From the NCBI RefSeq assembly GCF_030684315.1, contig NC_081361.1, positions 56,217,553 through 56,281,552 on the forward strand: a stretch of 64,000 bases of DNA, in the 5' to 3' direction. Position numbers and translations under genes: made by a program. Each line of letters starts with the position of its first letter. The first letter of the stretch is position 1. The notes under the pieces were generated by a model. That model ran no database searches and was not told where the DNA came from. It saw nothing but the letters and a program-made list of their open reading frames with translations. Source of the DNA: Stegostoma tigrinum. Taxonomy: Eukaryota. Positions 1,444 through 61,951 of this stretch are shown here, piece by piece.

Positions 1444-2846
1444 CCCCCACCTCCTCCTCCGCTACATCGATGACTGTATCGGTGCTGCTTCATGCTCCCA
1501 CAAGAAGCTTGAACAGTTCATCAACTTTTCTAACACTTTTCACCTCAACCTCAAGTTCACCTGGACCATCTCTGATACCTGTCTGTCTCCATCTCTGTTG
1601 ACTGCCTAGAAAGTGACATCTATTTCAGGCCCACCAACTCCCACAGCTACCTGGGCTACACCTCCTTTCAGCCACGTTCCTGCAAGAATGCAATCCCCTA
1701 CTCCCAACTCCTCTGCCACAGCTGCCCCCAAGATGGGGCATTCCACTTCCAAACATCCCAGATGTCCTTGTACTTCAAGGACTGCAACTTCACCCCTTCA
1801 GCGGTCAAAAATACTCTCGACCACATATCTTGCACCTCTGCCCTCACATCCTCTCCTCGCAACAAAAACAAAGACAGAAACCCCTTGTTCTCACCTAACA
1901 CCCCACTAACCTCCATATCCAATATATCATTTGCTGCCACTTCTACCACCAGCAATCCAACCACACAACCAAACATATATTTCCTTCCCCACCCCTATCT
2001 GCCTTCCATAAGGACTATGCTCTCCACGAAACCCTCATCCACTCTACATTCCCCACTAATCCCACCTCCCCCAGCACATTTCCCTGCAACCACAGGAAAT
2101 ACTACACTTACCCCTACACTTCCTCACTCACCTCCATCCAAGGAGCCAAATAAACCCTTCAGATCAGACAGATTCACCTGCACTTCTGTTAATGTGGTCT
2201 ATTGCATCCACTGCTCCCAATGTGGCTTCCTCTACATTGGTGACGCCAAGCAGAGTCTCAGGGACCACTCTGTAGAGCACCTACAGTCTGGTCACAATAA
2301 GTGACAACACCTTCCAGTCACGAGCCATTTCAACTCCCCTCCCACTCCCTGGGCAACACATCCATCCTGGGCCTCCTCCCGTGTCAAAATGACACCACCC
2401 AGAAACTGGAGGAGTAGCACCTCATATTTCAGCTCAGGAGCCTACAACCCAATAGCCTCACTGTGGACTTTACCAGTTTCAAAAACTCCCCAACCACGGC
2501 CTCATCCCATGACCGACCAACCCTCCCTCTCATCCCCACCACCTTAACCTGACACAATCTGTCCATCTTCTCTCCCACCTATCCACCCCTCCAATCCCAC
2601 TGACCAATTCCCAACACTCCCTACCTGCACTCACCTATCACCACCCCACCTACCTTCCCCAGCCCTACCCCTCCTCTCTCGGCTTATTCCTGAGCTCCCT
2701 TGCCCCCCCATCCCCGTTTCTGAAGAAGGGTTCCCCACCCGAAACGTCAGCTTTCCTGCTCCTCTGATGCTGCCTGGCCTGCTGTGTTCCTCCAGCGCCA
2801 CACCGTGTTGTCTCTAACTCCAGCGTCTGCAGTTCTTGCTATCTCT
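1444..2846 (+). mobile_element. 5'-truncated Penelope-like retroelement (RT C-terminus, GIY-YIG endonuclease, 3' terminal repeat)
   Basis: RYIDDCIG RT motif at ~1460-1483; VVYCIHCSQCGFLYIG...HSVEHL GIY-YIG region at ~2190-2290; frameshifted; ends in the terminal repeat shared with the fold-back elements. Confidence 0.9.
2717..2752 (+). ncRNA. Minimal type I hammerhead ribozyme motif in Penelope 3' repeat
   Basis: CTGAAGA-A-GGG-TTCCCCA-CCC-GAAACGTC-AG: both core boxes, stem II and a GUC cleavage triplet. Confidence 0.75.
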
Positions 2847-2983
2847 CAAAATGAGTTGCGTTGCGGTCCGTTCATCTCTACTACAGTTACTTATGGCCCG
2901 GGCACATTACACAGTCATCCACATTCATCAACAGATGGCGACACAAATGAACAGCTTCTGTTACCCTCTTTCTCTCGCTGCAG

Positions 2984-3146
2984 CCACAGCCGGTTCAACC
3001 TCCCCAGGTGTTTCTCCTCGTTGCGGGCCATCAACTCGGAGCCTCAGCAGGTCCTCCGCATCCGAGTACGCTTGGCCCGCTGTGAATCCTCCACATTCCC
3101 GGCAGCCTCTTGGGCGGAGCACGTGACAGCAGGCTCGGTCACGTGA
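2984..3146 (+). CDS. Probable terminal coding exon of an unidentified gene (..HSRFNLPRCFSSLRAINSEPQQVLRIRVRLARC..*)
   Basis: Strong acceptor TTACCCTCTTTCTCTCGCTGCAG ending 2983; by hand count ~42 of 53 codons end in G/C in an AT-rich background; TGA at 3144-3146; ATTAAA at ~3328. Confidence 0.5.
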
Positions 3147-3354
3147 GCGCCTGTGGAATCAACTGTCGCTGGCCTGTTCAGTTCCCTGAGGTACAACAGC
3201 TGGCAGAAACTGTCAGAAACAAACTCGCACAAGTGTTGAGCAAGTGCAAGCAGGATCCGGTCCGCTCGGCCCAGCCAGCCTGCACTGGCAAGGTCACACG
3301 AGTAAATTACCTAGTGCCAACCTTCACATTAAAATGCTCATGTTTTACCAATAT

Positions 3355-3783
3355 CACTAGGGTGCAGAAAAGGTTTTCAAGGATGTTGCCAGGACTGGAT
3401 AGTTTGAGCTATAGGGAGAGGCTGCATAGGCTGGAGATTTTTTGCCTGGAGCACGGGAAGCTGAGGGATGACCTTATTGAGGTTTATAAAATCATGAGGG
3501 GCATGGATAGAGTGAATTGCAAAACTGGGAATGATTTAAAATTGAAGGGTAACTTTTTTTTACACAGAAGGTAGTGCATGTATGGAATGACTGCCAGAGG
3601 AAAGGTAGAGGTGGGTATAAAACTCCATTTAAAAGGAGTCTAAATGGGACTATGAGTAGGAAAGGTTTAGAGGGATATGGGCCAAAATCTAGAAAATGTG
3701 ATTAGGTCAGATTGGGGTGTCTGGTCAGCATAGATGAGTTGGACTAAAGGGTCTGTTTTCTTGCTGTATGACTCTATGACTAT
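3355..3783 (+). mobile_element. CR1 LINE 3' fragment
   Basis: RVQKRFSRMLPGLDSLSYRERLHRL...DLIEVYKIMRG; short tandem TATGACTC tail. Confidence 0.9.
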
Positions 3784-6111
3784 ATTGCTTGCAACATCTT
3801 CCCCAATTGCTGTCACTCACCTGAACCCCTGACTGCATAAATGGTGCATGAGCTTTGTGCTGACCACATAATTGTTCAGGACATCGCCCCATCTGCACCA
3901 TGACTAACAGGTACACTATCCACTTTTATGCTCTGCAAATCTTGTCTCTGTTTCATTCCAGGAGGAAAACAGCCCATAATCGGATCAAAAGACTCAAGAC
4001 AGGTTATGGGCTGCCCAACATTCAGCTCCTCGCCCCTTATGAGGAAAGAATCATAACTGACTGACTGCTCCAAGCAGGTCCTGGATTGTTCACAGAAACT
4101 GCGTTTGACTTATTGTGCTGGGATTACCTGAGGAAAATCTTGAGTAAGGCCTGCTGATAACTATAACAAGCTTTTATGTTTGTGCTAAACCACAAGACAA
4201 GACAACAGTAATATGAGCCTGTTATCTCTAGCTGAGGGGACAAAATGAAGAAAAGGCAAGTCAATGCAAGGCAGTAAGCATCCAGGTAGGCTCAGCACAA
4301 GTGAGCACTCAGAGCAAGTTAACAGCCCAGACATACAGCCATGTAGAGTTATGAGCTGTGTGTGTGTGTCCTTGAGCACAATATGTCCTTGCTGCAGCAT
4401 TACAACAATAGTTGCAGTTGCAGCCTGAGGTGCAACATTAATGTGCTAAAGAGTACTGTAAGTGGATCAGAGCCATTAGCATCCTTAAAGGCTGCTAAAT
4501 GTTGGATGCCAATGTCCATGGATATGGGGTGCATGTGGCTGCTGCCCATGGTGCATGCCCTCTGATATTTGGGCTAAGATTCCAATCTGAAGATCATTCA
4601 GCGCAAGCAGCATGCCAAATCCATGAGATGCTCATCTGATTTCCTTGTTGAGTTTTCCTGGCATCTAACTGGCCTGATAAGTTTGGTGAGATATTAGGCT
4701 GAATATTAATGAGGTGAGTTGGGCTGTTAACAAAGCATTTAATGACCACTAATCACCATGACTTAGCCAATCGACAATGTCCAGTGTGAATCTTACCATG
4801 GCACTTGTGAAAAGCATGAAAATTGGTACGAGTTGCTTCTGGCATTAAGGTAAGCCCTGCTGCTCTTTTTGCCAATTCTGCCACAAGTCTCACATAGCCA
4901 ATGTTGCTCAAACCTCTATAAGATTCTGCTCTACAGTATTTAACTATAATTATCATAATATACAACCCCAAAGCTAATAAAGCTCCATAAGAAATCACAA
5001 AATAGACTGCCTATAAAGAACACAAAAGACGCATTTGCTTCCATATGGGATCACGAAAATATCAACCTAATCTCTTCAAACTTTCTCGTATAATCACAGT
5101 TACAGAATCAAACTGGAAACTGTAATTGATGTCTGGAGTTTTTGTTTGATATCCTTCAGGAGTCATGACATCTTTCAGTTTTGTTGGAATCTCGAATGCA
5201 CTCAGGAATTTAAACAATTTGTATTTGATCCCTTACAAGAAGCAGTTTTAGTTTCTCATTCCGTGCTTTAATGTAATCTTACCAATACTTGTAAAGAATT
5301 TTGGTTGTATAACTTAAAACAGATGTGCTTCTGTGACTTGAAGGTGGTGTGGGGATAGATTTAGTCCTGTTAAGTTCTAAGATTGAACCTCAGTGGGTTT
5401 AAGGAATGAGATGAAGTAACCCTTAAGTCTCTTCTTATTATGTCTGCAATGGTAAAGAATTGTGTTACTCTGTATAGTTTTGGGGTAAATATGAAGCAAA
5501 ATTGCATTCCCTGGTGCATTAAAACACAACACGAAACTAAGATTCACAAAATGTTTTAGCAAGACATTTCCATGTACAGATATTAACATCAATCAGAAAT
5601 ATTTGAAATTTCCAATGTCTACCAGTAGGCAACAATTATAATCTGACATATTTATGAATATGCAAAGCTATTCAGAATTATTTTGTTTTTTTCATTAAAG
5701 CAAAACATGAAAACTGTAAACATTGTCGAGATGATGAACATGTGCCACAATTGCAGGATTCACAAAAATTTACAAAATATGAAGAAGAACCACGTATCGG
5801 AGTTAAAATGAAAATCACAATACATTCAAAAGTGCACAACATATAATAAAATGTACTTCAGACAAAAATAGTCTTGTCAAGGAGCAGATGTAATCAATGG
5901 AAACGGATAGCAAAACTGCATTAACTATCCATGGCATATATCAACCAGCTCAAAGCTGTTGAAATCTATGAGTCTACTGTTGTGGTCACTGAACTAAAGG
6001 AGAAAGGATTGCTCAAAATGTCTGGTTCACCTGATTTGAAATTTTCTTGACTGAGTGCTCAATATTGTTTGTAAGAAGATTTTAAAAGTAATGTTACTAA
6101 AAAGTACAACA

Positions 6112-6310
6112 AAAGCAGAAACCGCTGGAGAATCTCAGCAGATCTGGCAGCATCTGTGGAGAGAAAACAGAGTTAATGTATTGCGTCCAGTTGACCCATC
6201 TTCTGGACCTGAAACATTAATTCTGATTTCGCTCCACACATGCTGCCAGAGCAGCTGAGTTTTTCCAACTATTTCAGTTTTTGTTGCTGATTTCCAGCAT
6301 CCACAGTTTT
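6112..6310. mobile_element. Degenerate Penelope-derived fold-back element
   Basis: CTCAGCAGATCTGGCAGCATCTGTGGAGAGAAAACAGAGTTAATGT inverted against ACATTAATTCTGATTTCGCTCCACACATGCTGCCAGAGCAGCTGAG; GAAACATT remnant. Confidence 0.65.
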
Positions 6311-7234
6311 TTTTTTCTTTAACTACAAGTAGTTTTGTCATCTATTCTATCAATTTTATTGATTGGTTTGAGAAGCACAGAATTAAGAGGAAACTATGAA
6401 ATGCTTTCAGTTTTGCAACAATTGTCCAAATCTGATGCATGCTCACACATACTGCATTGCAATTGTACTGTTTTGTACACAATCTTAAATTTTTTTAAGG
6501 CACAGAATGTGAACATACGACAGAACTCAAAAAATGAAATATGGATTCCGGCCATGAAAAGATAAACATAGGGAAACTACAGTAATGAATTTTAATCAAA
6601 CAATACACTGATTCAGTTTCACAAATTTGCATCACTGCATTCCATATTAAGTTGACTTGTTTAAAGACGCACTATTGTTTCACAGTTCAGAATTTTGACA
6701 TTTCTTTGTGCTTCTATAACTGATAATTTCACTTTTTATTTTGATCATTTTACATTTTTTTTGTAAGCACCTTATTTTTCCCTCTGTTTCATTCTTCGGA
6801 GCCACAATAAATTACATACTTTAGAATGATTTTTGTTTCTCATCACACCTCCCTTCGAATCATTGAAAAACTACTGTCATACTGGGTTTCAATATATCAC
6901 CGGTCCTTTGGTACCTCACTGAGTGTGAATCTTGATGGTGAGCATTGGATAACCATATAAGTCTGAAGTGGGCAGTCAGTATCACCTCTACTTTTATTTT
7001 GTCTCTGATCCAAAGTTCACATCATACATGTATGAATAAATGTCAATGGATGACAAATACAGGCAGGAATGACAGCTAATTCCCTCCATCACATCGTCCC
7101 CAACTCTGCAAATTGGCTTATGATCAGTACAGCACAGAGTTGCAAATGGAACAATTCTGGTCCATGAATCTCAATCCACAAACTAGATAATGCATTGACC
7201 AGTTAAATCATCAGGGAATATGAGTTTACTTTTC

Positions 7235-13661: not shown

Positions 13662-13788
13662 TTTATTTCAGAATCCACTTCCCCTCCCCCATTTCTGAAG
13701 AAGGATCTCAACCCGAAACGTCAGCCTTCCTGTTCCTCTGATGCTGCTTGGCCTGCTGTGTTCATCCAGCTCTACACTTTGTTATCTG
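13662..13788 (+). mobile_element. Penelope 3' terminal repeat with hammerhead motif
   Basis: CTGAAGA-AGGATCTCAACCC-GAAACGTC at 13695-13722 followed by CTGATGCTGCTTGGCCTGCTGTGTTCATCCAGC. Confidence 0.8.
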
Positions 13789-15294
13789 TAGCACTTGGGA
13801 TTTCTGTTTCTGAGCTGGCAGGAATAGTTTTCTTGATGCATCATTTGAGATTACCAAGCAACTACCTAAAGGGAAACACCAGTACAAAAAAAAAGGTCGT
13901 ACTTGAATATGAACATACCGGTCATACTGGTCCTTCATTTTGATGTACAAGAGAGTTAGACCAGTATACCTCATTTCTTTCTATTCATTCACATATGTGG
14001 TGACCCTTACTAAACCAGCATTTCCTGTCTATCCCTAGTTGTCTTTGTGAAGATGGTGTTGAGCTATGTCTTGAACCACTGCATTTGGAGTGTAGATAAA
14101 CTCACATTGCGGTTAGGGAGAGATTTCTGGATTTTGACCCATTCAATTTAACTGGTTTTGAGGCAATGAACAAAAGAGGAACACAATGACATGGGATTAG
14201 TTATATTACTAGGTGACAAGAAGGGGAAGCAAATAAAAAAATACAGAAACTAGAGAGAACGATAAAAATAGAAAAAAGACATCAGTAATCTTTCCAATAG
14301 AAGGGAATGAAACATCACACGATATTCAAACTAATGTATCTTTCTTAATGGATGCTGTTATTTCCAGATTGATGGAGGAGCTTCTGCTCTGCAAAGTCAT
14401 AAAATCAATAAACCTAACAGTTTTTAGATTACAGCTGAAAACTAGATAATGATGATGATGATGTCAGGTTACTGTTGATTGTCAATTTTAATTTCTGCAA
14501 ATCAAAGAATTTTTTTTTTGCATTTAACTTTTATATTTTGTTGCAATCAAGTCTTTTGGCTATCACGAGTGTAATAATGTTGCATTACCACTGGGGGTCA
14601 GTAGTGCTTCAAGAACTGAATGTTTGCGCAGCTAGAGGCCTGACAAATTTACTGCATAACTGATGGTAGATTGTGATATAATTAGACATTGACAGATGGT
14701 ATACTTATAATACAACACTAAGAAATATTGCAAATTTCAGTAACTGAAACTGTTAAGCAATTGGCTTCTTTCTTTCAAAAATGAATTTATAGATTAAACT
14801 ATGATACTTAGGATGAGGGAATTCAGAATTCATTTATCAAAGATCAATCCAAATACAAATACTTTAAAAAGCATGGAATAGCTCTAGGGGTTTAAAGTAA
14901 GAACAGAGTACTAATCAGTAATAACCAATGCAAATGCAAGATTTTTTTAACTTACTGTGAGGACTTTGCAACCAGTGTTGAATAAGATTATCTAAACTGT
15001 GGAAAATAACCACATTTTCAGATGTGATTTATGTCCACCAAAGAAACAAGATTGAAGGACATTCTCTGCTGCAATGGTAAAACATACTGTTGCAAGGGTA
15101 ATTTGAATATCTGGACCCTTGGTATTCGAAAATACTACTATAGGAAGTGGAAACCTGAAAATGCAGGTCTCTAAAAGACTAAAAACACTGTACAAAAATA
15201 AGAATTAGTTTCATTTTTGTTTTTTCTTGGACAGAGGGAAAGAGATAGGGAGAATATTAAAGTGTTGTGTGGGAAGTACACTCCTACAATGTCA

Positions 15295-15520
15295 GAGATA
15301 ATGGGAACTGCAGATGCTGGAGAATCCAAGGTAACAAAGTGTGAAGCTGGATGAACACAGCAAGCCAAGCAGCATCTCAGGAGCACAAAAGCTGACGTTT
15401 GGGGCCTAGACCCTTCATCAGAGAGCTCTCTGATGAAGGGTCTAGGCCACAAACGTCAGATTTTGTGCTCCTGAGATGCTGCTTGGCCTGCTGTGTTCAT
15501 CCAGTTCACACTTCGTTATC
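15295..15520. mobile_element. Penelope-derived fold-back element with 14-bp TSD
   Basis: Loopless palindrome centred at 15425/15426 (TCATCAGAGAG|CTCTCTGATGA); TSD CTCCT[A/C]CAATGTCA at 15281-15294 and 15520-15533. Confidence 0.9.
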
Positions 15521-18084
15521 TCCTCCAATGTCATTTCCTTTTTCATTTAAGCATTTTTAAGGCTACCTATGCTGAATTATTTAGTCAAAAGTCTATCAGT
15601 CTGATCATCGAAACAAGTTAATTTGCAGCAGTGACAGTTGTTGGAACATGGAACAAATTCCACATAAATATCTTAGGTTTCAGATGTCAACCTCCTAGCT
15701 GCGACATGGTATTAAGATGACTATAAAAGTTGTGTATGCATGCTGGTATCCAACTTTAGATCTGAATGGCTGTGACAATTGGTAAACTCGTCCTTGTTTA
15801 CATCGATCTCAGGCATATCACATTTCACAAACATCTTTGGTCCTCAAGTCCACCCATTGACTCTCACAGCAAGGGCTTCTGACAATTCAGGTGAATCAAA
15901 AAATCAGAACAGAGACTTCATTTACCTCCTGTCAATGCGGGCTCCTTCCAATTGGTGCTTTTACCTAGATGTCCATTGTTTAGAGGTAGCGAACACTAAA
16001 CAAAGAAAGCGCCATTGGTTGCTGAACCAGAATTATTGGATTAAATGTTAGGCCATGAGAAGCACTGGCAATCCAACAAGTTTTTGTTTACCTTTTCCTG
16101 TTCCAGCAGCCACCACATGAGGGAGCTGTGTCTCCATTTTACAGCCTCCAGATGTGTCTATACCCCTAATATTTAAAAGGAAGCATTAAATATCTAAATA
16201 AACTGAATTAAAAGTTCAAACAGACTAAATCACTAAACGTTTCTACGATCTTGTATTTTTGTACTAATATCTGGAATTGGATTAATAATAGTTTACAACT
16301 TTTCATCAATACTTTTAATATCAGAGAATTATCATTTTGAGATAAGGGTAAAGGAGCTTACAAATCACTTCTGATGATATTAATGTCCAAACACATTTGT
16401 GTGATATTCCTCAGTGCCAGTTTATTGCAGGAGTTCACCAATTATTTCAAGTGGGAGGAATGCCACCTCTAAAAACAAGGTACTGCGGAATGTCAGAGTG
16501 CCATAATAAACACTTGTTCGCTAATACCATCAACAGGGATTTCAGCCAGAATTGCCATCAATAAATTATTTTTAGTTTTACAAGGCATGCTTACTCTCTC
16601 AGTATTTCAGTAGTTAAATACATTGGCTGTTATGTTGAGCAAAGCAGACCACACCTGCCCCAGGTTTGAATGCTGGCCTGAGCTGTTCTTAGCCAACATG
16701 TGGATGTGTTGGTATTGGACTGTTCTCAGCCAAGACAGCTTTTAGTTTGTGTGCATCTGCGTTAGTGGAAGGAATAGTAATCACCCAGGGTTTCTATACG
16801 AGACCATTTTTCAATCTGGAAAATGTCTGTATATATCTGAAGCAGCAGCTGCTAATGTTACATTTCTCCCAGTTTTGATGTACTGAAGTCAGTAAAATTC
16901 CGAGAGAGTTAAAATTGGCAGCTGACCCATTTTACAGTATTGCAAAGAAGCAAATGAACTGTGCCTATGGATATCTGGTGGGGACAGAATCCTGCTTAGT
17001 TGTGGTAACTCTTGATCTGTTAAAGAATAACCTCTTGGTAAAAGGACTCAAAGTTAACCATGAAAATATAGCCCAGTTTGTGTGAGTGCCTTCAGGAGAG
17101 AAATATAGAAAGTTGCAAAATAAGAGGAGGAAGATGGGGATCTTGCTCTTTTAAAAAACTCACAAACACATAACTGTTTAGTCATTATTTTCACCATTTT
17201 CTGAAAAGAAATCTACTGTCTTAAGAAATAAATAGAAAAGGAATATTTTTTTTTATTTGGAGTGGACTCTCTTCCTCATCCCTGTATAGCTAGAACACTG
17301 GGAGCTAATTATTTCCACAGTGTTGTTTAAGGTTTCTACTGGAGAGTTTGTCAAGCACCTCCTTCTTGAGAAAGCAGGCATTGTTTGTTTAAACTGCAAT
17401 AACTTGATGAATTAAACAACGAAGGTTGTTTTTCTTTGTGTTCTTCATTTGTACAGATAAAACTAAAGTGATATCTTTAATAAGTTCAGATATTCTGTTA
17501 TATTCAATTATCATGGTAAAAGTTATGAACAATGATAATAAGTGGGTTATGATATCCCACAGACAATGCCAGCCTCGGACACCCAGCCTGATTACTCAAA
17601 TTTCATTTGACCTTTTATAGCCTTGTTGTAATAAACCCAGCTCTTCAACTCAATTGTTAGCAATTTACAGTGAGCCTTGGAAGAATACTTTTAAAAATCT
17701 AACTTTGAATCTTGGGAGAATTCCAGTAAACAAGCCATTCACATCAAACAAGTGTTTTTTTCTCTGGCCACGTAATATTCTCATCATATTGAAAAGATCA
17801 GTGTTGAGGTTAAAACATTAGCATAGAGCTAATGATTCACTTAATTATCAATACTCTCACATAATTGCTATCATTGTCTCCTGAAAGAGACAAAGGAGGA
17901 AGCATCTCTCAGTTTGTTGGAGTTGAGAAATGTAACTGCACCCTGTGACTGAAATACATTTGCCAAGAACCCCAGGTACCATTCAGATTTGGTGCTTTTA
18001 CTGTTGCACTGTACATGGACCACAGAACAACTCAGAATCTTTTCTTCTCTGCCATTGACAACGACCTTCATATTTATTTTAAAC

Positions 18085-18181
18085 AAAACCAGAAATTGCT
18101 GGAGAAATTTGGCAGGTCTGGCAGCATCTGAGAAGAGAAATCAGAGCTCACGTTTCAGCACCTGTGACTCTTCTTCAGAAC
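18085..18181 (-). mobile_element. Penelope terminal-repeat fragment with decayed hammerhead motif
   Basis: Minus strand reads CTGAAGAAGAGTCACAGGTGCTGAAACGTG. Confidence 0.55.
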
Positions 18182-19984: not shown

Positions 19985-20020
<36 letters not shown>

Positions 20021-22370: not shown

Positions 22371-22992
22371 AGATCGTAAGAATTGTAGATGCTGGATTCA
22401 GAGGCAACACAGTGTGGAGCTGGAGGAACACAGCAGGCCAAGCAGCATCAGAGGAGCAGGAAAGTTGACATTTTGGATCAGGACCCTTCTTCAGAAATGG
22501 GGAGGGGGAAGGGAGCTCAGAAATAAGTAGAGAGAGAAAGGATGGAGCTATGGAAGGTGGGTGTGATGGTGATAGGTGAGTGCAGGTAGGCAATGGTGGG
22601 GATTGGTTAGTGTAATGGGAAGAGCTGATAGGTGGGAGAGAAGTTGGACAAGTTGTATCAGGTGAAAGAGGCAGGGATTGAGAGGGAGGCTTGGGCATGG
22701 GATGAGGCTGGAGTTAGGGAAATTTTGAAACTGGTAAAATCCACTTTAGGCCATTGGGCTGTAGGCAAAATATGAGCAGCTGCTCCTCCAGTTTGTGTGT
22801 GGTGACATTGTGGCACTGGGGGAGCCCAGGATGGGCATGCCACCCAGGGAGTGGGAGTGGATGGTTTGCGACCAGAAGGTGTTGTCATTTGTTGCAAACA
22901 GAGCACAGATGTTCTACAAAGTGATCTATGAGCCTCTGCTTGGTCTCACCGATGCTGAGGAAGCCACATCAGGATCAGTGGATTCAGTAGAC
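22371..22992 (-). mobile_element. 5'-truncated Penelope-like element with 17-bp TSD
   Basis: Similar to 2250-2846 on the reverse strand; TSD CAC[C/T]AGTGTTAAAACAG at 22354-22370 and 22993-23009; decayed hammerhead CTGAAGAAGGGTCCTGATCCAAAATGTC. Confidence 0.85.
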
Positions 22993-26265: not shown

Positions 26266-29110
26266 CTAAAGAACAATAGAGCACAGGAACAGGTCCTTCA
26301 GCCTTCCAAGCCTGTGTCGACACATTTTGCCCTTCCACACTACAACTTCCTGTAAGTCCCTCTATTCCTTTCCAATTCATGTATTTTTCCAGGTACTTCT
26401 TGAATGCTGCTACGGTGTCTGCTTCCACCACCTTGTCTGGCAGCATGTTCCAGGCACCCACCACCCTCTGTGTGAAAAATTTGCCTCTCACATCTCTTTT
26501 AAACTTGCCTCCACCACTCCACCCCCGGACCTTGAACTTGTGCCCCCTCGTAATTGATTCATACACCCTGTGAAAAACCTCAGACTTTCCACCCTACCTA
26601 TGTCATTTACAATCTTTAAACTTCTACCAGGCCACGTCTCAACGTCCCACTTTCCAGTGAAAACAAAACCAGTCTATTCTTCATTTCTTCATTGCTAAAA
26701 TCCCCCATACCAGGCATCATGCTGGTAAACCTTTTCTGTACCCTCTCCAAAGCAGTGTGGTGACCAGAGCTTTACGCAATATTCCAAGTGTGGCCTAACT
26801 AATGTACTACAAAGCTACAGCATTACTTGCCTATCCTTATATTCTGTGCCCATTCCAATGATGGCAAGCACGCCATAACCCTTTTTACTACTTCATCTAC
26901 CTGCTCTGCCACCTTCAGCGATCTGTGGACCAACACACCCAGATCCCTCTGCATATCAGTAATGAGAAGGGCTTATAATTTCCACCTGACCCTGACCTTT
27001 GTCACCTTCTAAAATGTGTCATCTCACATGTGTACAGATTAAGTTCCATCTGTCATTTTTCTGCCATTGTCTCCAGCTGGTCTATATCCTGCCATATCCT
27101 CTGATAATTCTCACTATCTGCTACTCCATCAATCTTTGTATCATCTGCAAACTTACTAATTAGACCAGCTATGTTTTCTTCTAAATCAGTTATGTAGATC
27201 ACAAACAGTGCTGATCCCTGTGGAACACCACTAGTTACAACCCTTCAATCCAAAAAGCATCCTCCTAACACTACACTCTGTCTCCTATGCCTAAGATAGC
27301 CATGATGTGGAGGTAGTGGTATTGGTCTGGTGTGTTTCAAAACCATACAGATGTTGGGACAATGGATAAATGGACACTACGTAACAACTGCCAGACAGTG
27401 ATGTTCCCTCCCAGTGGGGGAACCCTTCAGTGCTCAAGGACATTCGGCCTCAGATCTTCAGGTAAACGTCCTCCAAGGCAGACTTCAGGATACATAACAA
27501 CGCAGAGTCGCCGAGCAGAGGCTGATTGCTGAGTTTGGTACCCATGAGGATGGGTTCAACTGGGATCTTAGGTTCATGTCGCACTTAAGGTGACCCCACC
27601 AAACTGCACCCATGCACACACATCCACACATGCACATCCACACACACACACCTGTGAATCAATGGTGTGAATTTGTATTTGCAGATTTTACTTTGTTCAA
27701 AAAACACATAAAATTAAACAGCCAATCAATATGGCGTTTTATAAATTCCTGCTTTAGAAATAATACCAGACAACTCCAAACCGTAACACAAACAGATTCT
27801 AAAGAAGCTCTCACACCTAACATGCATTGTCTGACCTAAATGTCACCTCTTCTTTACACTGCTAAAACTTTTACTTCTCTCAGGAATTCTGGGATTTACA
27901 TGTACATATTAATCAATTAAAACCTTCTAACTGATTGAAGACTTAACAGCATCTCAGGTTTGTTTAGTACATCCTCATCAATGGTGTGAACCTTTGATCT
28001 TTTACTTGTAAATTCTATGTCTATACTACCTCTCTCACTAGTACCTGAAGAAGGACTGATGCTCTGAAAGCTTGTGTTTTCAAATAAACCTGTTGGACTA
28101 TAACCTGATGTCGTGTGATTTCTGACTTTGTCCTATGACTCAGCCAATTCTGTATACATCTTGCCAGCTCAGTCCGATACAATGAGACTTCAACTTTTGT
28201 ACCAGTCTGCCATGAGGGACCTTGTCAAAGGCTTTACTAAAGTCCATATAGATAACATCAATTGCTTTACCCTCATCAATCATCTTCATCACCTCCACAA
28301 GCATCTTGATCAAGTTAGTGAGACACAGCTTTCCCTGTACAAAACCATGCCATCTATCACTAATAAGTCCATTTGCTTCTAAATGCATACTGATTTTGTT
28401 CCTGGGATTCTTTTTCAATAATTTTCCGACCACTGATGTGAGGCTTACAAGGCCTGTAATTTCCTGAATTATCCCTGCCAACCTTCTTAAACAATGGGAC
28501 AACATTGACTACTTTCCAGTCTTCTGGGACCTCCCCTGTGGCCAAAGAGGATACAAAGATGTAAGTCAATGCTCCAGCAATTTGTTTACTTGCCTCCCTC
28601 AATATTCTGGGAGTGATCCCATCAGGACCCAGGGACTTATCTACCTTAATACTTTGTAATATGCACAACACCTCTCCCTTTTAAAAAGCAACTTGGTTAG
28701 AAATTGTCACTCTTCCCCAAAATTATCTTCCATCAATTCCTTCTCTTTGGTGAATACTGATACAAAGTATTCATTTAGGACCTCATCTGCCTCTTCTGGC
28801 TCTGCACATTGATTCCCTGCTTTGTCCTTGAGTGGACCGACCCTTTCCCTGGTCACCCTCTTGCTTTATATATATGTATAAAAAGCTTTGGGATTCTCCT
28901 TAATTCTGTTTGCCAATAACTTTTCATGACCTCTTTTAGCCCTTCTAATTCCTTGTTTAAGTTCTATCCTACTTTCCTTATATACTTCAAGAGCTTCCAT
29001 CCTCCTAAACTTTGTGTAAGCTTCCTTTTTCTTTTTGACCAGGGTCATAACATCCAAGGTTCACATAACTTGCCATACCTATCCTTCATTGTCCCAGGAG
29101 TGTTCAAATT
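26266..29110 (-). mobile_element. CR1 LINE (~2 kb of ORF2), interrupted by a Penelope element
   Basis: GPDGITPRIL, GNYRP, YMDFSKAFDKVPH and FFTQRVV motifs on the minus strand. Confidence 0.92.
27300..28130 (+). mobile_element. Penelope-like element (second subfamily) nested in CR1
   Basis: GIY-YIG C-terminal remnant (GHSASDLQVNVLQG...AEQRLIAEFGTHEDG); terminal CTGAAGA-AGGACTGATGCTCT-GAAAGCTT at 28045-28073; approximate TSD TCCTATG(C/A)CT(A/C)AG. Confidence 0.8.
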
Positions 29111-32050: not shown

Positions 32051-32059
32051 GCATTTGTG

Positions 32060-33441: not shown

Positions 33442-33442
33442 G

Positions 33443-37079: not shown

Positions 37080-39448
37080 TGGTATATAACTTACTACACT
37101 TCATACTTTTCCACATTATATTCCATCTGCCACGTTCTTGTTATTCACCAAGCCTATCCAAATCTTTCTGAAGCCACTTTGCATCTTCCTCACAACATAG
37201 GTTGCCACTTAACTTTGCATCATCCACAAATTTGCAAGTATTACATTTGGTGCTCCACCACCAAATCTTTGGTATACATTGTGAATAGCTGGGTCCCAAG
37301 TACATGACCTCACATTTTTCTGTGTCGAATTCCATTTGCACACTGATGAGAGCAGATTGACTGGCTTATACCATACCATACCATTTTTGAATAATGTTAC
37401 AAGGCTCATCTCCGATCCTCTTTATATCTAATGAGGGTTGGAAAATGCTCCTCAAGCATACATTATTTCATTCCTGGCTTCCTTTAACAGTCTGGGATAC
37501 AATTCATCTGACCCTCATGATTTATTCACTTTCAGTTAAGTCACTGTCTCTAATGATTCCCTTCTCATTGTGCTTATTTTATCTAATATTGCACACTCGT
37601 CCTCTATAACTAGATTGTTTCCTTTGTGAAGTCAAAGACAAAGAGCTCATTAAGAACTTGTGCTGTATCATCCACCTGCCCAGCTCCATTTAAGACTTTA
37701 GGACCAAAAGACACAGGAGCAGAAGGAGCAGAAGTAGACCATACAGCCAGTTGTGTTTGCTTTGCCATTCAATGAGATCATGGCTGATCTGATAATCTTC
37801 AGCTCCACTCTCCTGCATTTTCCCGATGACCCAAGGACAATATTTATATACTAGATGATAACTGGGTCATTGAAGTGCACTATTTTCCTCTTTTGAGTTT
37901 TGTATGGAGAAATTTATTACATAGTTCATCCTCCAACTCTTTCCTATGATTTGGGAGTATATCATACACATCCAGCAGTGTGGCTTGTTTCCATTTTGTT
38001 TCTGAGCTCAACCCACATGGTCCATTGTAGGAGTACAACGAAAAGCTTTTACAATGTCTGCCATTTATGGTGACATCTTGGGTATAAGTGCCAAGGTACA
38101 AATCTTGGATACAACAGAAGAATAAAATGTAGTTGCATTACTTAACACAGTTTAAAGAATAAGTTAAAAATCAAACATTGTTCAAGGATTGACACTAGAA
38201 TAAGGTAAAAAATTTCAAACAACATCACATTGTAGCAACTCAATGCAAGGCCTCAGCACGTGGTCTGACCACCTGCACCAGACCCCGATCCAACAGCTGA
38301 CTCGCTCAGCTACAAGCCTCCAGTCCACTCCATGCTGGCACTTAGCTGCTGCAAGGTAAGTTCCAGGACTACATCCCCTGCACCGATCTCCGCCTGAGAC
38401 TTGCTGCCTGCTTCTAGAGGGGCTGCTTTCTTCACATGCTGCTTTGGAGCTTACTGCCTGCGTTGTTCCGGGACTCACAGCCTATGTGCTGCTTCAGGGC
38501 TTGCAACCCCTACGCTGTTCTGGGTCTTGCAAACCACACCCTGTTCCAGGGTTTGTTTCTGCAGGACTTGCGCCTGTGCCTGACGCTGTTCCAGAATTCT
38601 CCTTTGGACCTAAAGGGGTGGGGGCTAAGGGGGGAGAGGGGGAGGTGATGTGGGGGTGGGGGTGTGAAAAAAAGAGCAAAAAGAAAATGAAATAAAAAGC
38701 ACAGGCGGAGCAGAGCAGATCCAGCGGGAGCATCTTACGCTGGTGCAAGGGGAATGCAGAGAGAAAGCCAAATGTAGACGTCTGAACACAGTAGAAGAAG
38801 AAAGGACACCCCCCACACCCCCACCGATATATATCCCCTTCCACTGAACCCCTTCTAACTAACCAAGTTCCCACCTTACACCCACTGCAGCAAAAGCAGC
38901 GTTCAGCGCAGAGAGGGCACCTCTGAGAGAGGCCTTTGTTTATGCTTCCTGAAAATGATTGGCACAAGCTTAAAAATACCAATTTAAACCAGCACCAACA
39001 AACCAGCTACGGCTTTCCTCAGGTGTTGTATACCCATGAGTTAATGCTGTAAAAAAACTTCTCTTCTCCTGACTTAAAGACTAATGTTTGGTTAATTGCT
39101 GTCTTATAGAAAGAAAACCTATAATTTTAAATCAAAATTAGCTGTAAAACTTTCGTACTCAGCAGTTTCCTGTGCAGACAAGTTACTGCTGATGGAGACC
39201 TCAATTTTTACTTAATTTTATTAAATTACATTCTACTAAGCCTGTAATAAAAAATCATAAGTTGTTTCTCCACACAGATCTCAGTTGAAGAATTAAACTC
39301 TTAAAAATGAATTGTTTTAAAATTACATCATTTTAAAAGTTGTTTTATATCAGGATTCTCTAAATGGGTTGTAACCACATTAAGTTCTATTCCTTGAACA
39401 TTTAAAAACAGCATTTTCTTTTTCAGAATGAATGGAACCCTTGTACAA

Positions 39449-46945: not shown

Positions 46946-47168
46946 GTGATAATGGGAACTGCAGATGCTGGAGACTCCAAGATAACAAAGTGTGAAGCTG
47001 GATGAACTCAGCAGGCCAAGCAGCATCTCAGGAGCGCAAAAGCTGACGTTTCGGGCCTAGACTCTTCATCGATGAGGGGATGAAGAGTCCAGGCCCAAAA
47101 CGTTAGCTTTTGTGCTCCTGAGATGCTGCTTGGCCTGCTGTGTTCATCCAGCTCCACACTTTGTTATC
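46946..47168. mobile_element. Penelope-derived fold-back element with 12-bp TSD
   Basis: TSD TTGATATT[G/A]CCA at 46934-46945 and 47169-47180; GATGAAGAGTCTAGGCCCGAAACGTC on the minus strand. Confidence 0.9.
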
Positions 47169-47654
47169 TTGATATTACCATATTGGATTCAGCCAGTACC
47201 AATATCTTTGACTTTTCAAAAGAAATTCATTAGTTAAAACTTCCTCCTCTCCCTTTATCATTTTTTGTTCTGTGTGTGAATGAAATAGTGAAGCCAATCC
47301 CCACATTTTGAACGTTTTGTTGATAAGCCTTATCTTTGGCTTCATCCTAAAAGGATTGTGTTATGAATTTATTTCAAAAATTGTAATCCAAAAAAAATCA
47401 GGATTTGTAGAACATCCTTTGGCCTACTTCATTAGAGAAAAGAGTAAAAAGAGAAAAGAGTACATCAAGCAATACCTCACCATCTTGATCAGAAACAGCA
47501 ATTGCTATTTAAATTCACCCCATTCCCCCTAAACTAAGCCAATATTCTTACACAGTCTTTCCATACACTCAGCTCGCAGGCAGGCACACATATTCTTGCA
47601 AGACATGGATTTGTATGAGATAATAAATCCTATTGTGCAATAGTATATCCCATT

Positions 47655-48160
47655 CATAGAATCACTACAGTGCAGGTAGAAGTTATTTGGCCCATAGAGT
47701 CTGCACTGAGCCTCCAAAGAACATAGTATCAGAGACAGTAGGAACTGCAGGTGCTGAGAATCTGAGATAACAAAGTGTAGAGCTGGATGAACACAGCAAG
47801 CCAAGCAGCATCAGAGGAGCAGGAAGGCTGATGTTTCGGGCCTAGACTGAAGAAGGGTCTTCAGCCTACCTGCTCCTCTGATGCTGCTTGGCCTGCTGTG
47901 TTCATCCAGCTCTACATCTTGTTACCTCCAAAGAACATACCTCCCTATCCCTGTAACCCCACATTTACTACCTAATCTACATACTACAGGACAATTTAGC
48001 ATAACCAATTCACATAATCTGCATATTTTAGACAACAGGAGGAAAGCCACATGGACATGGGCAGAATGCACAAACTTCACACAGAAAGTTGCCTGAGGCT
48101 GGAATTGAACCCAGGTCCCTGGTGTCATGACACAGCAGCAATGATCACTGAGGCACCATG
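47655..48160 (-). mobile_element. HE1-like (V-SINE) elasmobranch SINE, interrupted by a fold-back element
   Basis: Minus head TCAGTGATCATTGCTGCTG...GGGACCTGGGTTCAATTCCAGCC; GCTAAATTGTCCTGTAGT V-domain-like segment; CR1-like tail. Confidence 0.75.
47726..47924. mobile_element. Penelope-derived fold-back element with 15-bp TSD
   Basis: TSD CCTCCAAAGAACATA at 47711-47725 and 47925-47939. Confidence 0.85.
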
Positions 48161-48578: not shown

Positions 48579-48884
48579 GACAACCTCATCCAGCCCCCTT
48601 GACCTGTCCGTCTTCCCTTTACTGGCCTATCCCCTCCCTACCTCCCCACCTACACTCACCCTTACTGGCTCCATCCCCACCTCTTTGACCTGTCTGTCTC
48701 CTCTACACCTATCTTCTCCTCTATCCATCTTTGATCCACCTCCCCGTCTCTCCCTATTTATTTCAGATCCCCCTTCTCCTCCCCCATTTCTGATGAAGGG
48801 TCTAGGCCCGAAACTTCAGCTTTCCTGTTCCAAAGATGCTGCTGATGGCCTGCTGTGTTCATCCAGCTCCACACTTTGTTATCT
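48579..48884 (+). mobile_element. Penelope 3' end with perfect 16-bp TSD and hammerhead motif
   Basis: TSD CTGTTTCCATTTGTCC at 48563-48578 and 48885-48900; CTGATGA-AGGGTCTAGGCCC-GAAACTTC at 48790-48817. Confidence 0.9.
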
Positions 48885-49462: not shown

Positions 49463-50151
49463 AAAATGCTCAGGCTGTCCTGATCAGTAGGCACTCGATG
49501 TGTTTAGCATAAATATAGTGAACAAACACAGCTAAAACAATGTTAGTAGTTTCTGGCATAATGTAGTTAAGTAATATTCCACAAATTTATTACATAAGGG
49601 TCAATAATTTCAATTGGGGCAGCACAGTGGCTCAGTGATTAGCACTGCTGCCTCACAGCGCCAGGGACTGTGGTTTGATTCTGCCTTTGAGTGACTGCCT
49701 GTGTGGAGTTTGCATGTTCTCCCTGTGTTTGCTCCAGGTAACAAGGTATAGAACTGGATGAACACAGCAGGCCAAGCAGCATCAGAGGAGCACAAAAGCT
49801 GATGTCTTGGGCCTAGGCCCAAACCATCAGCTTTCCTGCTCCTTGGCCTGCTGTGTTCATCCAGCTCTACACCTTGTTACCTAGAGTAAACACAGGGAGA
49901 ACGTGCAAACTCCATACAGTCACTCAAAGGCAGAATCGAACACAGATACCTGACGCTGTGAGGCAGCAGTGCTAACCACTGAGCCACCGTGCTGCCCCAA
50001 TTGAAATTATTGACCCTTTTGTAATAAATTTGTAGAATATTGCTTAACTACATTATGCCAGAAGCCACTAACATTGTTTTAGTTTTGTTTGTTCACTGTA
50101 TTTACGCTAAACACATTGAGTGCCTTCTGATCAGGACAGCCTGAGCATTTT
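49463..50151. repeat. ~690-bp imperfect palindrome (host DNA + HE1 SINE head + Penelope arm, inverted)
   Basis: Centre GGGCCT|AGGCCC at 49814/49815; AAAATGCTCAGGCTGTCCTGATCAG at 49463 mirrors CTGATCAGGACAGCCTGAGCATTTT ending at 50151. Confidence 0.95.
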
Positions 50152-50849
50152 CGGCCTAGGCCCGAAACGTCAGCTTTCCTGATCCTCTGATGCTGCTTGG
50201 CCTGCTGTGTTCATCCAGCTCTACATTGAGGTTATAAGTGGATGGGTCTTGGCGGCATGCTGCAAGGATCATTGTGGGCTTGTTGGGCAGAAGGACCTGT
50301 ATTCACACTATGGGGATTCTATGTCTAATCTCACATTCTTACTGTATAAAAGCAGAATAAGTGTGTATTTTGGAACCTACCTGATTTGTTTTAGTGCAAG
50401 TGTGATCAATTTGTTATAGTCAATAAGTATCTTAATCTTAAAATTTATATAAATTTTCACACTAATGATAGTAAAAAGATAAATTTGATGAATATTTAAA
50501 TACTCTATTTAAAATGTTGATTTGGATATAACTAACCAGAGGTTAAGTCAACATTTTAAAAATCACTCCTTATAACACAAATTAATTTCTAATCCATTAA
50601 CTAATTTGAACTCAGCATTATCCATTGCAAATTTTCACCACGTGCTGTATTTAAATGTAAATGTTTTGGACGGTGACAACCCTGGTATTAGGATTTTCTT
50701 TCGGGGCAGTACGCAAATATTAAAAACTCCATCGTCTTAATTAGGGTATTTTCGGTCTCATTTACAGCAAGACGATACATAAAAGCTTTGCCATGTCGGT
50801 GTCCTTTCAAAAGTAACAACTGGCAATAACTATTCAGCTGAACACATGA

Positions 50850-58709: not shown

Positions 58710-59570
58710 TACTGTTGAGTACAAAATTCAAGGCTGAAACTTTAGTGCAATGCAGAAGGAGTGCTGCATTGTTGGAGATGCCATCCTTTAGGTGAGATAT
58801 TTGCATGAGGTTCAAATGTCTGCTGGAATATTGTAAAGAACATAAGTTTATAGGAAAAGGAGTAAGCCATTTGCCCCCTCAAGCCTGCCAGCCGTCTAAT
58901 AAGACCTGGTGTGAGCTCCGTATATCCCTCAATGCCCTGATATTTTAAAACATATTTGTACCTCTCTTTTTAGTGACCTAGTTTTCATAATTGCCTGGAG
59001 TAAAGACTTCCAATATTTTCTACCCTCTGAGAATAAATTCTTCTGTATCTTGGTTTTAAATGAATGACCCTTTATTCTGTGACAAGTAATAACAAGAAGT
59101 AGGATTAGGCCATTCGGTCAAAGCTCCCAGGTCACTAGTTCAAACAATAGCAGTGAAGCACTTCTGGCATCCTGGCCAATATTTATCTCTCTAACAGCAA
59201 AAAGCATTGTTATTATTCACATTGCTGTTTGTGGGAGTTTATTGTGCTCAAGTTGTCTTTCCTAACATTTCTAACATTATTAAAGCAGCTAAACTCCAAA
59301 AGTAAAGATAACAAAGTGTGGAGCTGGATGAACACAGCAGGCCAAGCAGCATCTCAGGAGCACAAAAGCTGACGTTTCGGGCCGAGACCTTTCATCTGGT
59401 GAAGGGTCTCGGCCCGAAATGTCAGCTTTTGTGCTCCTGAGTTGCTGTTTGGCCTGCTGTGTTCATCCAGATCCACACTTTGTTATCTTGGATTCTCCAG
59501 CATCTGCAGTTCCCATTATCACTAAACTCCAAAAGTACTTCGGTAGATTCATAAGTCAGCGCTTTGCCAC
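58710..59570 (+). mobile_element. DeuSINE (SacSINE1-like) with nested CR1 fragment and fold-back element
   Basis: GGAGTGCTGCATTGTTGGAGATGCC... and TCCTGGCCAATATTTATC...CACATTGCTGTTTGTGGGAG segments; CR1 tail at ~58840-59080. Confidence 0.65.
59305..59521. mobile_element. Penelope-derived fold-back element with perfect 16-bp TSD
   Basis: TSD CTAAACTCCAAAAGTA at 59289-59304 and 59522-59537; long arm on the right. Confidence 0.92.
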
Positions 59571-59589: not shown

Positions 59590-60240
59590 CCAAGCAGACA
59601 TCCCTTTTCTACAGTTTGCTTGCACTTCATTCGATTTAGTTTACTCTATCTATTGCTCACAATGTGATTGCCCCTACATTGAAAACACAAAATGTGTGAC
59701 CCTGTTGCAGAATACCTCTGCTATTTCTGTAAAAATTACCCCAAAATTCTGGTTGCCTGCCACTTAAATACTATATTCCCATGGCAATATTTCTGTCTAA
59801 GGACTGCTACCTCCAGCAAAGTTCAAAACATTTTCAAGGAACAGCACCTCATCGTATGCCTTGGTACCTGCAGTCCTCAGGATTTAGTAATTGAGTTTTA
59901 CAAATTCAGAGCATGAACACCTTCCTCCAAATCTGTTCTCCCCCACCCCTCCATGCCATTTCTCTTTCAGTTTCTCCCAGCACAGCCAATGCATTTTCAA
60001 CACTTTGGATTTACCATTAGCACCCTTTCAGCATTTATCTGTCTCTCAGTTTATTATCTACAATCCCTCACTTGCTTTTCCTTTTTATCATCCCCATCCC
60101 CTGGCACTGTCTGCATTAATGTATTTCATTCCTATCTGCACCACATCTCCTTCTCTTTCTCCACCTCTCTCTGCAACCCCCCCCCCCCCCCCCAACCCAT
60201 AATCAGCATAAACACTGCCTTTTCCTGGCTACTTTCTGTT
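59590..60240 (+). mobile_element. Decayed Penelope-like element (GIY-YIG remnant)
   Basis: FACTSFDLVYSIYCSQCDCPYIE...; EQHLIVCLGTCSP. Confidence 0.75.
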
Positions 60241-60439
60241 TTTGTACCTAATCAGCTGTAAAATATTTTAAATGTCTGATGGTTGTGAATACACTATTTA
60301 TGTTGAAGTCTTTTTTTCTACCTATGCTGTATCTGGATACTAAAGTTTTCCAAGATTACTGCTTATACTTTTGCATTTTTATTTTTGAAACTATGTGTTT
60401 AAAGTTTAAGTTATTTTTATGTAATTTCAGTTGTGTGCA

Positions 60440-60785
60440 TGGAGGTGGCGTTATAGTAGTAATGTGACTAGACTGGTAACCCAGAACTCCATGCTAATTG
60501 GCTTGAATCCCACCTTGGCAAATTTGAGCTTAAAAATATCTGGATTTAAAATAGAAAAACCAGCCTAGTGATGACAGTGACACTGTCAATTGCTGTAAAA
60601 ACGTAGCTGGATCACTAATGTCCTTCTAGAGATGGTGCTGTCTGCCCTCCTTACTCATCTGGTCTTCACGTAACTCCAGTCCAACAACACTGTGACTGAC
60701 CTCTAACTGTCCTCTGGACATTGTAGCATAAGCAGTCAATGCTGGCCTTTTCAGAAATACCAACGTCCCAAGAGCAAATAAAAAT
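60440..60785 (+). mobile_element. tRNA-derived SINE
   Basis: GGAGGTGGCGTTATAGTAGTAATGTGACTAGACT...TTGAATCCCACC head; related to 12190-12543. Confidence 0.65.
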
Positions 60786-61013
60786 GAGCGACTTATATTT
60801 TAATATTACCTACTTTAGAGTTTAGGTTTTGAGCTAATGGCATGTCGGTTNNNNNNNNNNNNNNNNNNNNNNNNNNNNNNNNNNNNNNNNNNNNNNNNNN
60901 NNNNNNNNNNNNNNNNNNNNNNNNNNNNNNNNNNNNNNNNNNNNNNNNNNNNNNNNNNNNNNNNNNNNNNNNNNNNNNNNNNNNNNNNNNNNNNNNNNNN
61001 NNNNNNNNNNNNN

Positions 61014-61951
61014 TTGATTTCATCAAGAGTTTTTAGGAGCAAACAAACTTCACGGTTGTGCATTAGCGTTTTAGTTTATAAGGTCAGTGTGATTTTATTT
61101 GTTCTTTTGATTAGAGGAAACACTGATAGCTTAGAAAAAACTTTTTCATTTTACTTTGCCAACTTTACAGCATCCTCGGCAGAAGATGGAAGTGTAAAGC
61201 AGTTGCTCTGAGAAAGGGAGATGGTTTAGAACCGGTAGAGTTAGATTTCTCATAAAAAGTTTAATTTGAAAGGTCCAGAGCAGAAGTGTTTGGTTGCAAC
61301 TTAAGGAGTAAGGGCCTCGGATTCTCAAAACAAGCAATTGAAGACACATTTAAATCAAATAGATGTGAAAAAGAAGGGAATTATCTTTGGTATCGGTACT
61401 GTAAAGAAATTAGATACGATAAAAAAACTGCAGATGCTGGAATCCAAAATAGACAAACAGGAGAATATAAGTAGACAGCAGGCCAGGCAGCATCTGGAGG
61501 AAAAGAGAAGTCAACATTTCAGGTGTCACCCATCTTCAGATCCTCCTCTCTCCCTTTTTTGTCTGCAACTCCCCCTACCCCCACATCCAGCCCTGAAGAA
61601 GGGTAGTACCTGAAATGTTGACTTCTCCTTTCCTCCAGGTGCTGCCTGGCTTGCTGTGTTCTTCCACCCTCCTGTTTGTCTACTGTAAAGAAATGCTTCT
61701 GAGATTAATGGAATTGTGTTTTACTGGGTTTCTCTAAATCTTTAAATTTGTGCCCTGGGTTAATAGATTGGGTTATTCTATTTTGGTATTTGCATAATAA
61801 ACTAATTTAATTGTTAAAACTGAATGTGCAGCATTGCGTGTTTCTGTTTCACTGAAAGATCACCGCTTCAGAACCAAAAGAAAAATCTATTAAGCCAGTT
61901 TTCAGTCTGGGATCTGCATTTAATGTAATAACATTAGCTGGGATCATAACA
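61014..61951 (+). mobile_element. Probable solo LTR (5' end in or before the gap)
   Basis: AATAAA at ~61796 and 3' end CTGGGATCATAACA, resembling LTR termini. Confidence 0.45.
61411..61680. mobile_element. Penelope-derived fold-back element with 14-bp TSD
   Basis: TSD TACTGTAAAGAAAT at 61397-61410 and 61681-61694; CTGAAGA-AGGGTAGTACCT-GAAATGTT at 61593-61619; ~50-nt spacer. Confidence 0.85.

Follow-up and report, generated by a model that had tools for sequence, protein, structure and literature searches.

Hammerhead motifs in the window and in the genome

The DNA analysed here is a 64,000-nucleotide stretch of the Stegostoma tigrinum genome (contig NC_081361.1, positions 56,217,553 to 56,281,552; hereafter, the window), and it is strewn with copies of a Penelope-like element (PLE) whose pseudo-long terminal repeat (pLTR) carries a minimal hammerhead ribozyme motif (Table 1). 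Inserted copies of this element record two RNA 5' ends, one at a likely start site and one at the predicted hammerhead cut site, and most of what follows concerns the origin of these ends. With a descriptor consisting of CUGANGA, one further base, a stem II of at least 3 bp, GAAA, two bases and UH, we found 7 matches in the window, compared with a mean of 0.02 and a maximum of 1 in 100 shuffles. Other stretches of the genome, sampled over 960 kb, gave 81 matches (reversed control, 0), which extrapolates to ~270,000 genome-wide. Searches of the 3.2-Gb assembly found 109,121 occurrences of one exact 31-nt pattern (control, 0), 192,135 of a 21-mer from the tail of the element and 6,236 of a second family with GAAAGCTH (control, 123). 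The very large number of motifs anticipated in a preliminary description of this DNA is thus borne out. Its estimate of about one copy per 4 kb is right if every related remnant is counted. Intact descriptor matches are sparser, with one in roughly 9 kb of the window and one in roughly 12 kb of the sample.

At the six sites where that description had placed a recurrent motif, the motif is indeed present, far above chance, but the exact GAAAC-GTC form (GAAACGTC) is restricted to 2720, 13695 and 36987; site 48790 reads GAAACTTC, 32389 reads GAAACATT and 61593 reads GAAATGTT. The sites it listed as decayed are related remnants, although those at 934, 18150, 22470, 31900 and 47045 sit on the minus strand and the one at 28045, far from decayed, is among the best preserved. 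CUGANGA is absent at 50155. That description had missed a minus-strand motif at 61513-61539 and the partner arms of the palindromes, as well as related copies at 6108-6321, 34696-34758, 47725-47927 and 49754-49875. A search of the window against Rfam returned 18 matches up to E=5 with no hammerhead family among them; its miRNA matches were rejected as such, being the palindromes.

The source element

The motif sits 200-230 nt downstream of the end of a frame encoding reverse transcriptase (RT) and a GIY-YIG endonuclease (EN). A natural 422-aa version of this frame elsewhere in the genome (locus L011), with YIDD, a C-X4-C-X2-C linker and a GIY-YIG match, maps to window positions 1418-2522 (tblastn, 45-49% identity, E down to 1e-48) and 22594-22995. 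Against Pfam, this partial frame matched GIY-YIG with E 1.6e-4 and 22.3 bits, just below the cut-off of 22.6, and matched no RT family. The copies show 5' truncation, an inverted 5' copy and a 30-40-bp tail at one end. A CX2-5CxxC linker between RT and EN marks Neptune and Nematis (PMC8557442). Considering the RT and GIY-YIG frame, the cysteine linker, the 5' truncation, the inverted partners and the one-ended tail, the source is, as judged from sequence features by the criteria of PMC8557442, an EN+ PLE of probable Neptune type. Minimal hammerheads in Penelope pLTRs, including the extra base and the palindrome discussed below, have already been described (PMC4209133). With RT and GIY-YIG remnants upstream, an invariant core and covarying helices, the assignment of the window motifs to this class is confirmed: they belong to the minimal type I hammerheads that Neptune-like Penelope retrotransposons carry in their pLTRs, an association already known. 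A rarer and distinct hammerhead family, with a stem II of up to 7 bp and a helix I of 5 bp (L075:2674-2719, minus strand; L064:5367), comes perhaps from another Penelope clade.

Conservation of the ribozyme fold

Tail-anchored copies of five subfamilies were compared (A, 118; O, 67; B, 40; C, 11; D, 2). Their commonest core letters (CUGANGA ... GAAA ... UH) are identical throughout, N7 being T, A or G, while N7, H17, helix I, stem II and the 15.2-16.2 pair vary jointly between subfamilies. The pairing was scored in 18 natural copies, selected by motif and including one misaligned row: 90.4% of 177 cells are paired, against 72.2% when shuffled (0/500) and 17-44% when slid, and all four helix I pairs as well as the 15.2-16.2 pair show changes on both sides. 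Helix II is closed by G10.1-C11.1 (95.7% of cells paired, with C11.1 often decayed to T at a CpG), and the extra base between positions 9 and 10.1, remarked on in the preliminary description, is present alongside this closure. The palindrome at 15.1-16.1, which would permit a dimeric helix III, is ACGU in subfamilies A, O, B and D and AGCU in C. Helix I has 4 bp in B, 3-5 bp in C and 4-5 bp in D (n=2). In A and O it has just 2 bp, the second of which shows compensatory change (U-A, U-G, C-G). A helix I of only 2 bp is found in 61 of the 81 descriptor matches of the 960-kb sample, and also at the sites named first in the preliminary description. Conservation of the core across subfamilies had been posed beforehand as a test, and the core proved invariant between subfamilies while the helices covary.

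Within subfamilies the picture is different. In 48 young copies with an internal core, non-CpG core positions have changed in 7/528 cases and the downstream flank in 18/816 (p=0.30; the flank count omits one subfamily-diagnostic column, with which it becomes 29/864). The same core count compares with 19/528 for stem II (p=0.03). The catalytic G12, which lies inside a CpG, is changed in 7/48 of these copies, and the core is retained in 68/180 tail-anchored copies sampled at random. The fold is therefore kept between subfamilies while its core decays within them, which argues for selection on the source elements and not on the dispersed copies; selection on the dispersed cores was rejected, the core being no better kept than its flank.

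The first RNA end: a probable start site before the core

The 5' ends of the 180 tail-anchored copies fall far upstream (64), at 0-8 nt before C3 (47), inside the core (44), after the cut (16), at the cut (7) or elsewhere (2). Subfamily B has the same peak, with 17/43 copies ending 2-6 nt before C3. In 94 long copies a TATA-like hexamer is found at -34 (61 copies) or -35/-36 (19 copies), about 30 nt upstream of the start peak, which itself lies 4 nt before the core. An extra G accompanies 23/31 junctions of tail to start site (absent in 6, ambiguous in 2), and precedes 71 of the CTCT starts among the 100 matches listed of 2,938. At CTCT starts with unique flanks it is present in 23/39, against an expectation of 25% (p=7e-6); these and the other CTCT rows were classified by hand. 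Such an untemplated 5' G has been attributed to cap copying (PMC3287187), and an internal promoter is known in the D. virilis pLTR (PMC2377424). From the peak of ends, the TATA-like box 30 bases upstream and the frequent extra G, it seems likely that capped transcription begins within the 5' strand of helix I, 4 nt ahead of the core. We infer that the uncut RNA is the main template, as in PAc, the Poseidon element of Anolis (PMC11167929).

Two side observations touch on this site. At the position 4 nt upstream of the core, the helix I 5' strand also resembles an initiator (L028:1497-1500, and other subfamilies): CCA+1TTTC, TCA+1GTTC and CCA+1GTCC in the older subfamilies, and a pyrimidine-only CC+1TCTCT in the youngest. 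The needs of the promoter may explain the shrinkage of helix I. There are also tandem units of ~103 nt that run from the start site to the tail and include the hammerhead (G000:C3:97303610-97303743, C42:38316764-38316897), possible seeds of retrozymes.

A probable second RNA end: the cut site

We searched for junctions in which the tail end is followed, within 12 nt, by post-cut sequence, allowing heads from -8 to +4. This gave 123 tail-to-head matches, of which the 100 listed represent 63 loci when grouped by hand. At 56 of these loci the head starts at the base after GUC (position 0, or 0/+1 where an A is shared); the others are ambiguous by 1-2 nt (4 loci), at +1 (1 locus) or at -3 and -6 (2 loci). 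Among the 63 listed loci none starts at +2 to +4 and none has an extra G, while ~9 have 1-2 extra bases by hand count. By the same kind of tail-to-head joining, the capped end is represented by only 31 junctions, though it is far commoner than the cut end.

The 20 junction loci that were fetched, chosen by us and mostly arrays, consist of units of 65-73 or 105-106 nt running from the cut to the tail end. The 3'-most unit usually extends as far as the distal tail site, and on the 5' side there is often an arm in inverted orientation. Target duplications of 12-18 nt flank 15/20 of these loci and in 0/20 is there a core upstream, so each locus is a single insertion. In arrays with several junctions the tail side differs while the head stays at the cut (10/16 loci). 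Of the first 50 of 908 short palindromes, 40 have their centre on the cut-site AGCT, as against 2 on an ACGT that lies five bases upstream, is just as self-complementary and served as a control. The 3' ends of 98 copies peak at +62-67 and +97-100. In 200 rows with unique flanks, counted by hand and leaving aside inverted, deleted and microhomology rows, the cut has 18 starts whereas its six neighbours average 4.3, and a G precedes 3/18 of these cut-site starts as opposed to 23/39 at the start site (p=0.004). Short-read contigs contain further joints back to the same base; they come perhaps from the assembly's own sample and are uninformative on expression.

The preliminary description had proposed that the motifs process retroelement RNA, and the junctions at the cut site suggest that they do. 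Three other origins were rejected. A splice acceptor at the CAG after the core would predict +2 starts, which are absent among the listed loci; insertion into older copies is contradicted, for the fetched loci, by the host target duplications and the lack of any core upstream; and one small RNA circle as the sole source of the arrays does not agree with junctions that differ within 10/16 of them. As a separate observation, one copy has three or four extra A at the cut, between an intact core and the tail (G000:C1:115897373-115897407), which might come from copying across a rejoined or jumped cut.

How the cut-site ends may have arisen

Judging from the DNA junctions, we consider it probable that the ribozyme of the source elements has cut a minority of germ-line RNAs, and that the minimal hammerheads of the PLE pLTRs are for the most part dead by-products of insertion. 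The TATA-like box would drive capped transcription from 4 nt before the core, and the hammerhead would then occupy the first 32 nt of the RNA. On its own it would fold into an inactive slipped helix, cutting after GUC only with help; the probable helpers are an element protein and a second hammerhead paired via the palindromic ACGU. With the cut, the capped leader would be lost. Reverse transcription would begin at two sites ~65 and ~100 nt past the cut, as the insertion ends and the mechanism described in PMC11167929 suggest, and the DNA junctions show copies of two kinds, some ending at the start site and frequently bearing an extra G, others ending precisely at the cut and lacking it. From the cut end the RT would jump back repeatedly to the internal start, building the 68-73-bp or 106-bp arrays of a single insertion, and head-to-head joining of two cDNA arms is frequent, yielding palindromes such as those of the window. 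In view of the junction counts given above, the jump-back most likely occurs readily from the cut end.

There is a bolder version of this scheme, which we regard as less likely than not: the hammerhead would be a protein-triggered decapping switch located right at the beginning of the transcript, the cut end a boundary for RT jumps, and the arrays mis-jumps of the step that rebuilds the pLTR. The normal jump would then link the two cut ends, 5' with 3', rebuilding the terminal repeat scarlessly, whereas in the arrays the telomerase-related RT would re-copy a 68-nt stretch again and again from the cut end.

A number of observations weigh against cutting by the ribozyme. Clean cut-site starts amount to an estimated ~1% of copies; a scripted count of the first 30 unique-flank rows gave 3 at the cut against 0-3 at its neighbours; and the random 180-copy sample, with too few clean starts, contains a single unique-flank start there. 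At loci L188, L196 and L197 some array units have mutations in common, so later DNA duplication contributed to the repetition. Many junctions share one A, and 0 and +1 are thus sometimes indistinguishable. The same junction search gave 0 matches in subfamily C and 4, one of them at the cut, in an older subfamily; the signal is thus not reproduced in older subfamilies. The youngest subfamily, its sole carrier, has a helix I of only 2 bp. In Anolis, according to PMC11167929, there are no RNA-seq reads ending at the cut and cleavage is dispensable in vitro. Finally, the hammerhead fold is far less stable than the slipped helix (CUGAUG/CGUCAG, -11.4 kcal/mol in a young monomer, against -3.6 kcal/mol for the hammerhead pairs), whose base adjoins the cut by one nt.

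This last point makes polymerase stalling a real rival. The RNA would never be cut; the RT would stall at the base of the slipped hairpin, formed by CUGAUG/CGUCAG atop stem II, and jump from there, the match to the cut site being a coincidence. The slipped helix is the predicted ground state, with its last pair at +1, and its strength is greatest in the youngest subfamily, to which the signal is confined; the prevalence of a 2-bp helix I also speaks for it. Nevertheless, the ends fall at one base, two pairs inside the slipped helix, and none of the listed loci has its head at the +2 to +4 positions where stalling would be expected. Moreover, 158/180 copies extend past the cut towards the 5' side. 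The few extra bases at some junction loci are those expected for run-off from a free end, for which R2 reportedly offers a precedent. On balance we regard stalling as unlikely.

Less probable still is an end with some other source: a second, uncapped start, some nuclease of the cell, or nicks that the element's endonuclease makes in older copies at this position, into which new copies would then insert. In vitro, PAc does nick the pLTR of its own element, and protein is required for cleavage of its RNA (PMC11167929). Against such a source, the host target duplications and upstream sequences exclude insertion into old copies at the fetched loci, the cap G is absent at the listed cut-site junctions, and the splice acceptor fails on its +2 prediction.

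A final alternative, which was raised in the preliminary description, sees in the dispersed copies a pool of functional ribozymes acting on host transcripts. The extrapolated number of matches, the share of copies that retain the core and a few old-family copies with a helix I of 4-5 bp all lend it some appeal. However, the core decays neutrally within subfamilies, helix I is mostly 2 bp, the slipped monomer is inactive and the palindromic window copies have predicted hairpins of -100 to -178 kcal/mol, so host-transcript cutting is unsupported, save perhaps for single copies; most dispersed copies are, on these predicted folds, unlikely to be active. In vitro, single minimal motifs gave no cleavage in the experiments of PMC4209133, and 8/9 Xenopus dimer elements did not cleave (10.64898/2026.07.22.740005). 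We find an active host-cutting pool the most improbable of these explanations.

Copies and other features of the window

The copies of the window are collected in Table 1. Five of its palindromes (15293-15521, 36863-37085, 46948-47171, 47725-47927 and 59305-59520) have one long-tail and one short-tail arm each, which suggests two strands primed at different RT start sites; if transcribed, they would give double-stranded RNA of 90-130 bp.

Table 1. Element copies and hammerhead motifs in the 64,000-nucleotide window.
Feature	Position	Strand	Basis
Decayed motif, 5' core gone, arm of an old palindrome	464..491	+	
Decayed subfamily B motif, G8 lost	935..964	-	
Decayed Penelope ORF (RT, thumb, Cys linker, GIY-YIG) with frameshifts and stops	1418..2522	+	tblastn, 422-aa L011 frame
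Minimal hammerhead, intact core, stem II 4 bp, helix I 2 bp; 3' of the ORF remnant, predicted cut after 2748	2720..2748	+	descriptor
Tail beyond the cut site, with two inferred reverse-transcription starts	2749..2835	+	blastn to young copy
Old head-to-head subfamily B palindrome, core lost	6108..6321		
Motif, core intact, stem II broken; copy begins near a TATA-like box at ~13661	13695..13722	+	
Palindromic insertion, GAAA mutated in both arms, each arm beginning 4 nt before the core, centre AGAG/CTCT; includes the earlier-listed site 15430; 8-nt target duplication	15293..15521		
Subfamily B motif, cleavage triplet lost (GUG)	18149..18178	-	
Motif without G12, at the end of GIY-YIG remnant 22594-22995 (minus strand)	22467..22494	-	
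Subfamily C motif with 5-bp helix I and AGCU as helix III palindrome, core intact	28045..28073	+	
Subfamily C motif, helix I 4 bp, one core A changed	31897..31925	-	
Subfamily B palindrome; 11-nt target duplication	32241..32487		
Motif inside 32241..32487, helix I 4 bp, 16.2 changed	32389-32418	+	
Copy starting exactly at the cut site (AGCT at 34758), ambiguous as such since ten adjoining bases may be an inverted remnant; 10-nt target duplication	34696..34758	-	
Young palindromic insertion; 14-nt target duplication	36863..37085		
Motif inside 36863..37085, core intact, without helix I 5' strand, buried in hairpin	36987-37014	+	
Young palindrome, C3-U4 lost at centre	46948..47171		
Palindrome, rearranged centre; 15-nt target duplication	47725..47927		
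Long direct pLTR copy, its motif (48790-48817) without the helix III pair	48582..48884	+	
Palindrome, centre at the CTAG loop of stem II, core lost	49754..49875		
5'-truncated copy without CUGANGA	50153..50227	+	
Young palindrome, both cores damaged at centre; 16-nt target duplication	59305..59520		
Subfamily D inverted pair; 14-nt target duplication	61410..61683		
Subfamily D motif of pair 61410..61683	61513-61539	-	
Subfamily D motif of pair 61410..61683	61593-61619	+	

Between these copies, two frames were read by eye. An open frame of 751 aa (7235-9490, minus strand), with a CARD-like N-terminal segment and many ankyrin repeats, is apparently a host gene in one long exon, and an intronless bZIP gene of the Jun family occupies 53991-55037 on the minus strand. 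A CpG-rich stretch at 20001-20500 (14 and 10 CpG per 250 nt), possibly a promoter, adjoins a (GT/GA)-rich minisatellite at ~18400-20150. Another dispersed repeat has left remnants coding for a LINE-like RT C-terminus at 3359-3781, 24777-25394, 33064-34353, 39448-40154 and 43056-43749.

Comparison with known systems

The motifs of Stegostoma share much with the minimal hammerheads of metazoan PLEs (PMC4209133): they are of type I, with a helix III reduced to the palindromic 15.2-16.2 pair, a pLTR location, the extra base between 9 and 10.1, the G10.1-C11.1 pair, many subfamilies, and dispersed copies that are single or on opposite strands. They differ in abundance, with >109,000 exact matches to one pattern here, where the descriptor of that study gave ~4,000 for coelacanth and ~9,000 for Xenopus, and in their helices, the dominant subfamilies here having 2 bp in helix I and 4 bp in helix II where 4-5 and 7-8 bp are typical there. 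A 2-bp helix I was reported in PMC4209133 only for D. virilis.

Non-LTR retrozymes of animals (10.64898/2026.07.22.740005) likewise consist of short tandem repeats derived from Penelope pLTRs. Their units hold the hammerhead, whereas it is missing from the arrays described here, whose units extend from the cut site to an RT start and whose junctions differ within an array. Identity with retrozymes was rejected, the window copies being single or inverted and the array units having no core.

With PAc (PMC11167929) the element shares two internal RT starts that make a 'tail', priming of both strands, uncut RNA as the main template and a hammerhead that needs help. Unlike PAc, it is Neptune-like with a Cys linker, and it has cut-site junctions in the genome and arrays of repeated cut-to-tail units, neither of which is reported in PMC11167929. 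The arrays also resemble a known process in which an RT that has run off a fixed 5' boundary copies again and again, adding a few bases, from which they differ in the jump to an internal start, the unit of 68-106 nt and the boundary at a ribozyme site; they are known from DNA junctions alone.

The new part is the double record of start site and cut site in inserted copies. In the literature searched, with Lunse et al. 2017 and the papers' supplements outside its coverage, no such record of cut-site junctions was found. PMC4209133 gave no in vivo evidence, and the cut-site DNA junctions bear on the open question of in vivo cutting: to judge by their sequences, copies that begin at the cut likely record germ-line cutting in vivo, which was beyond the reach of earlier work. 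With >100,000 young copies, the genome becomes a deep library of RNA 5' ends, in which capped starts are separated from uncapped ends at the scissile bond, the start site falls on the first strand of the ribozyme and repeated jumping from the cut end is visible. Wherever a genome has young Penelope copies, the idea can thereby be tested by computation alone, and for the in vitro system that already exists it makes a precise prediction.

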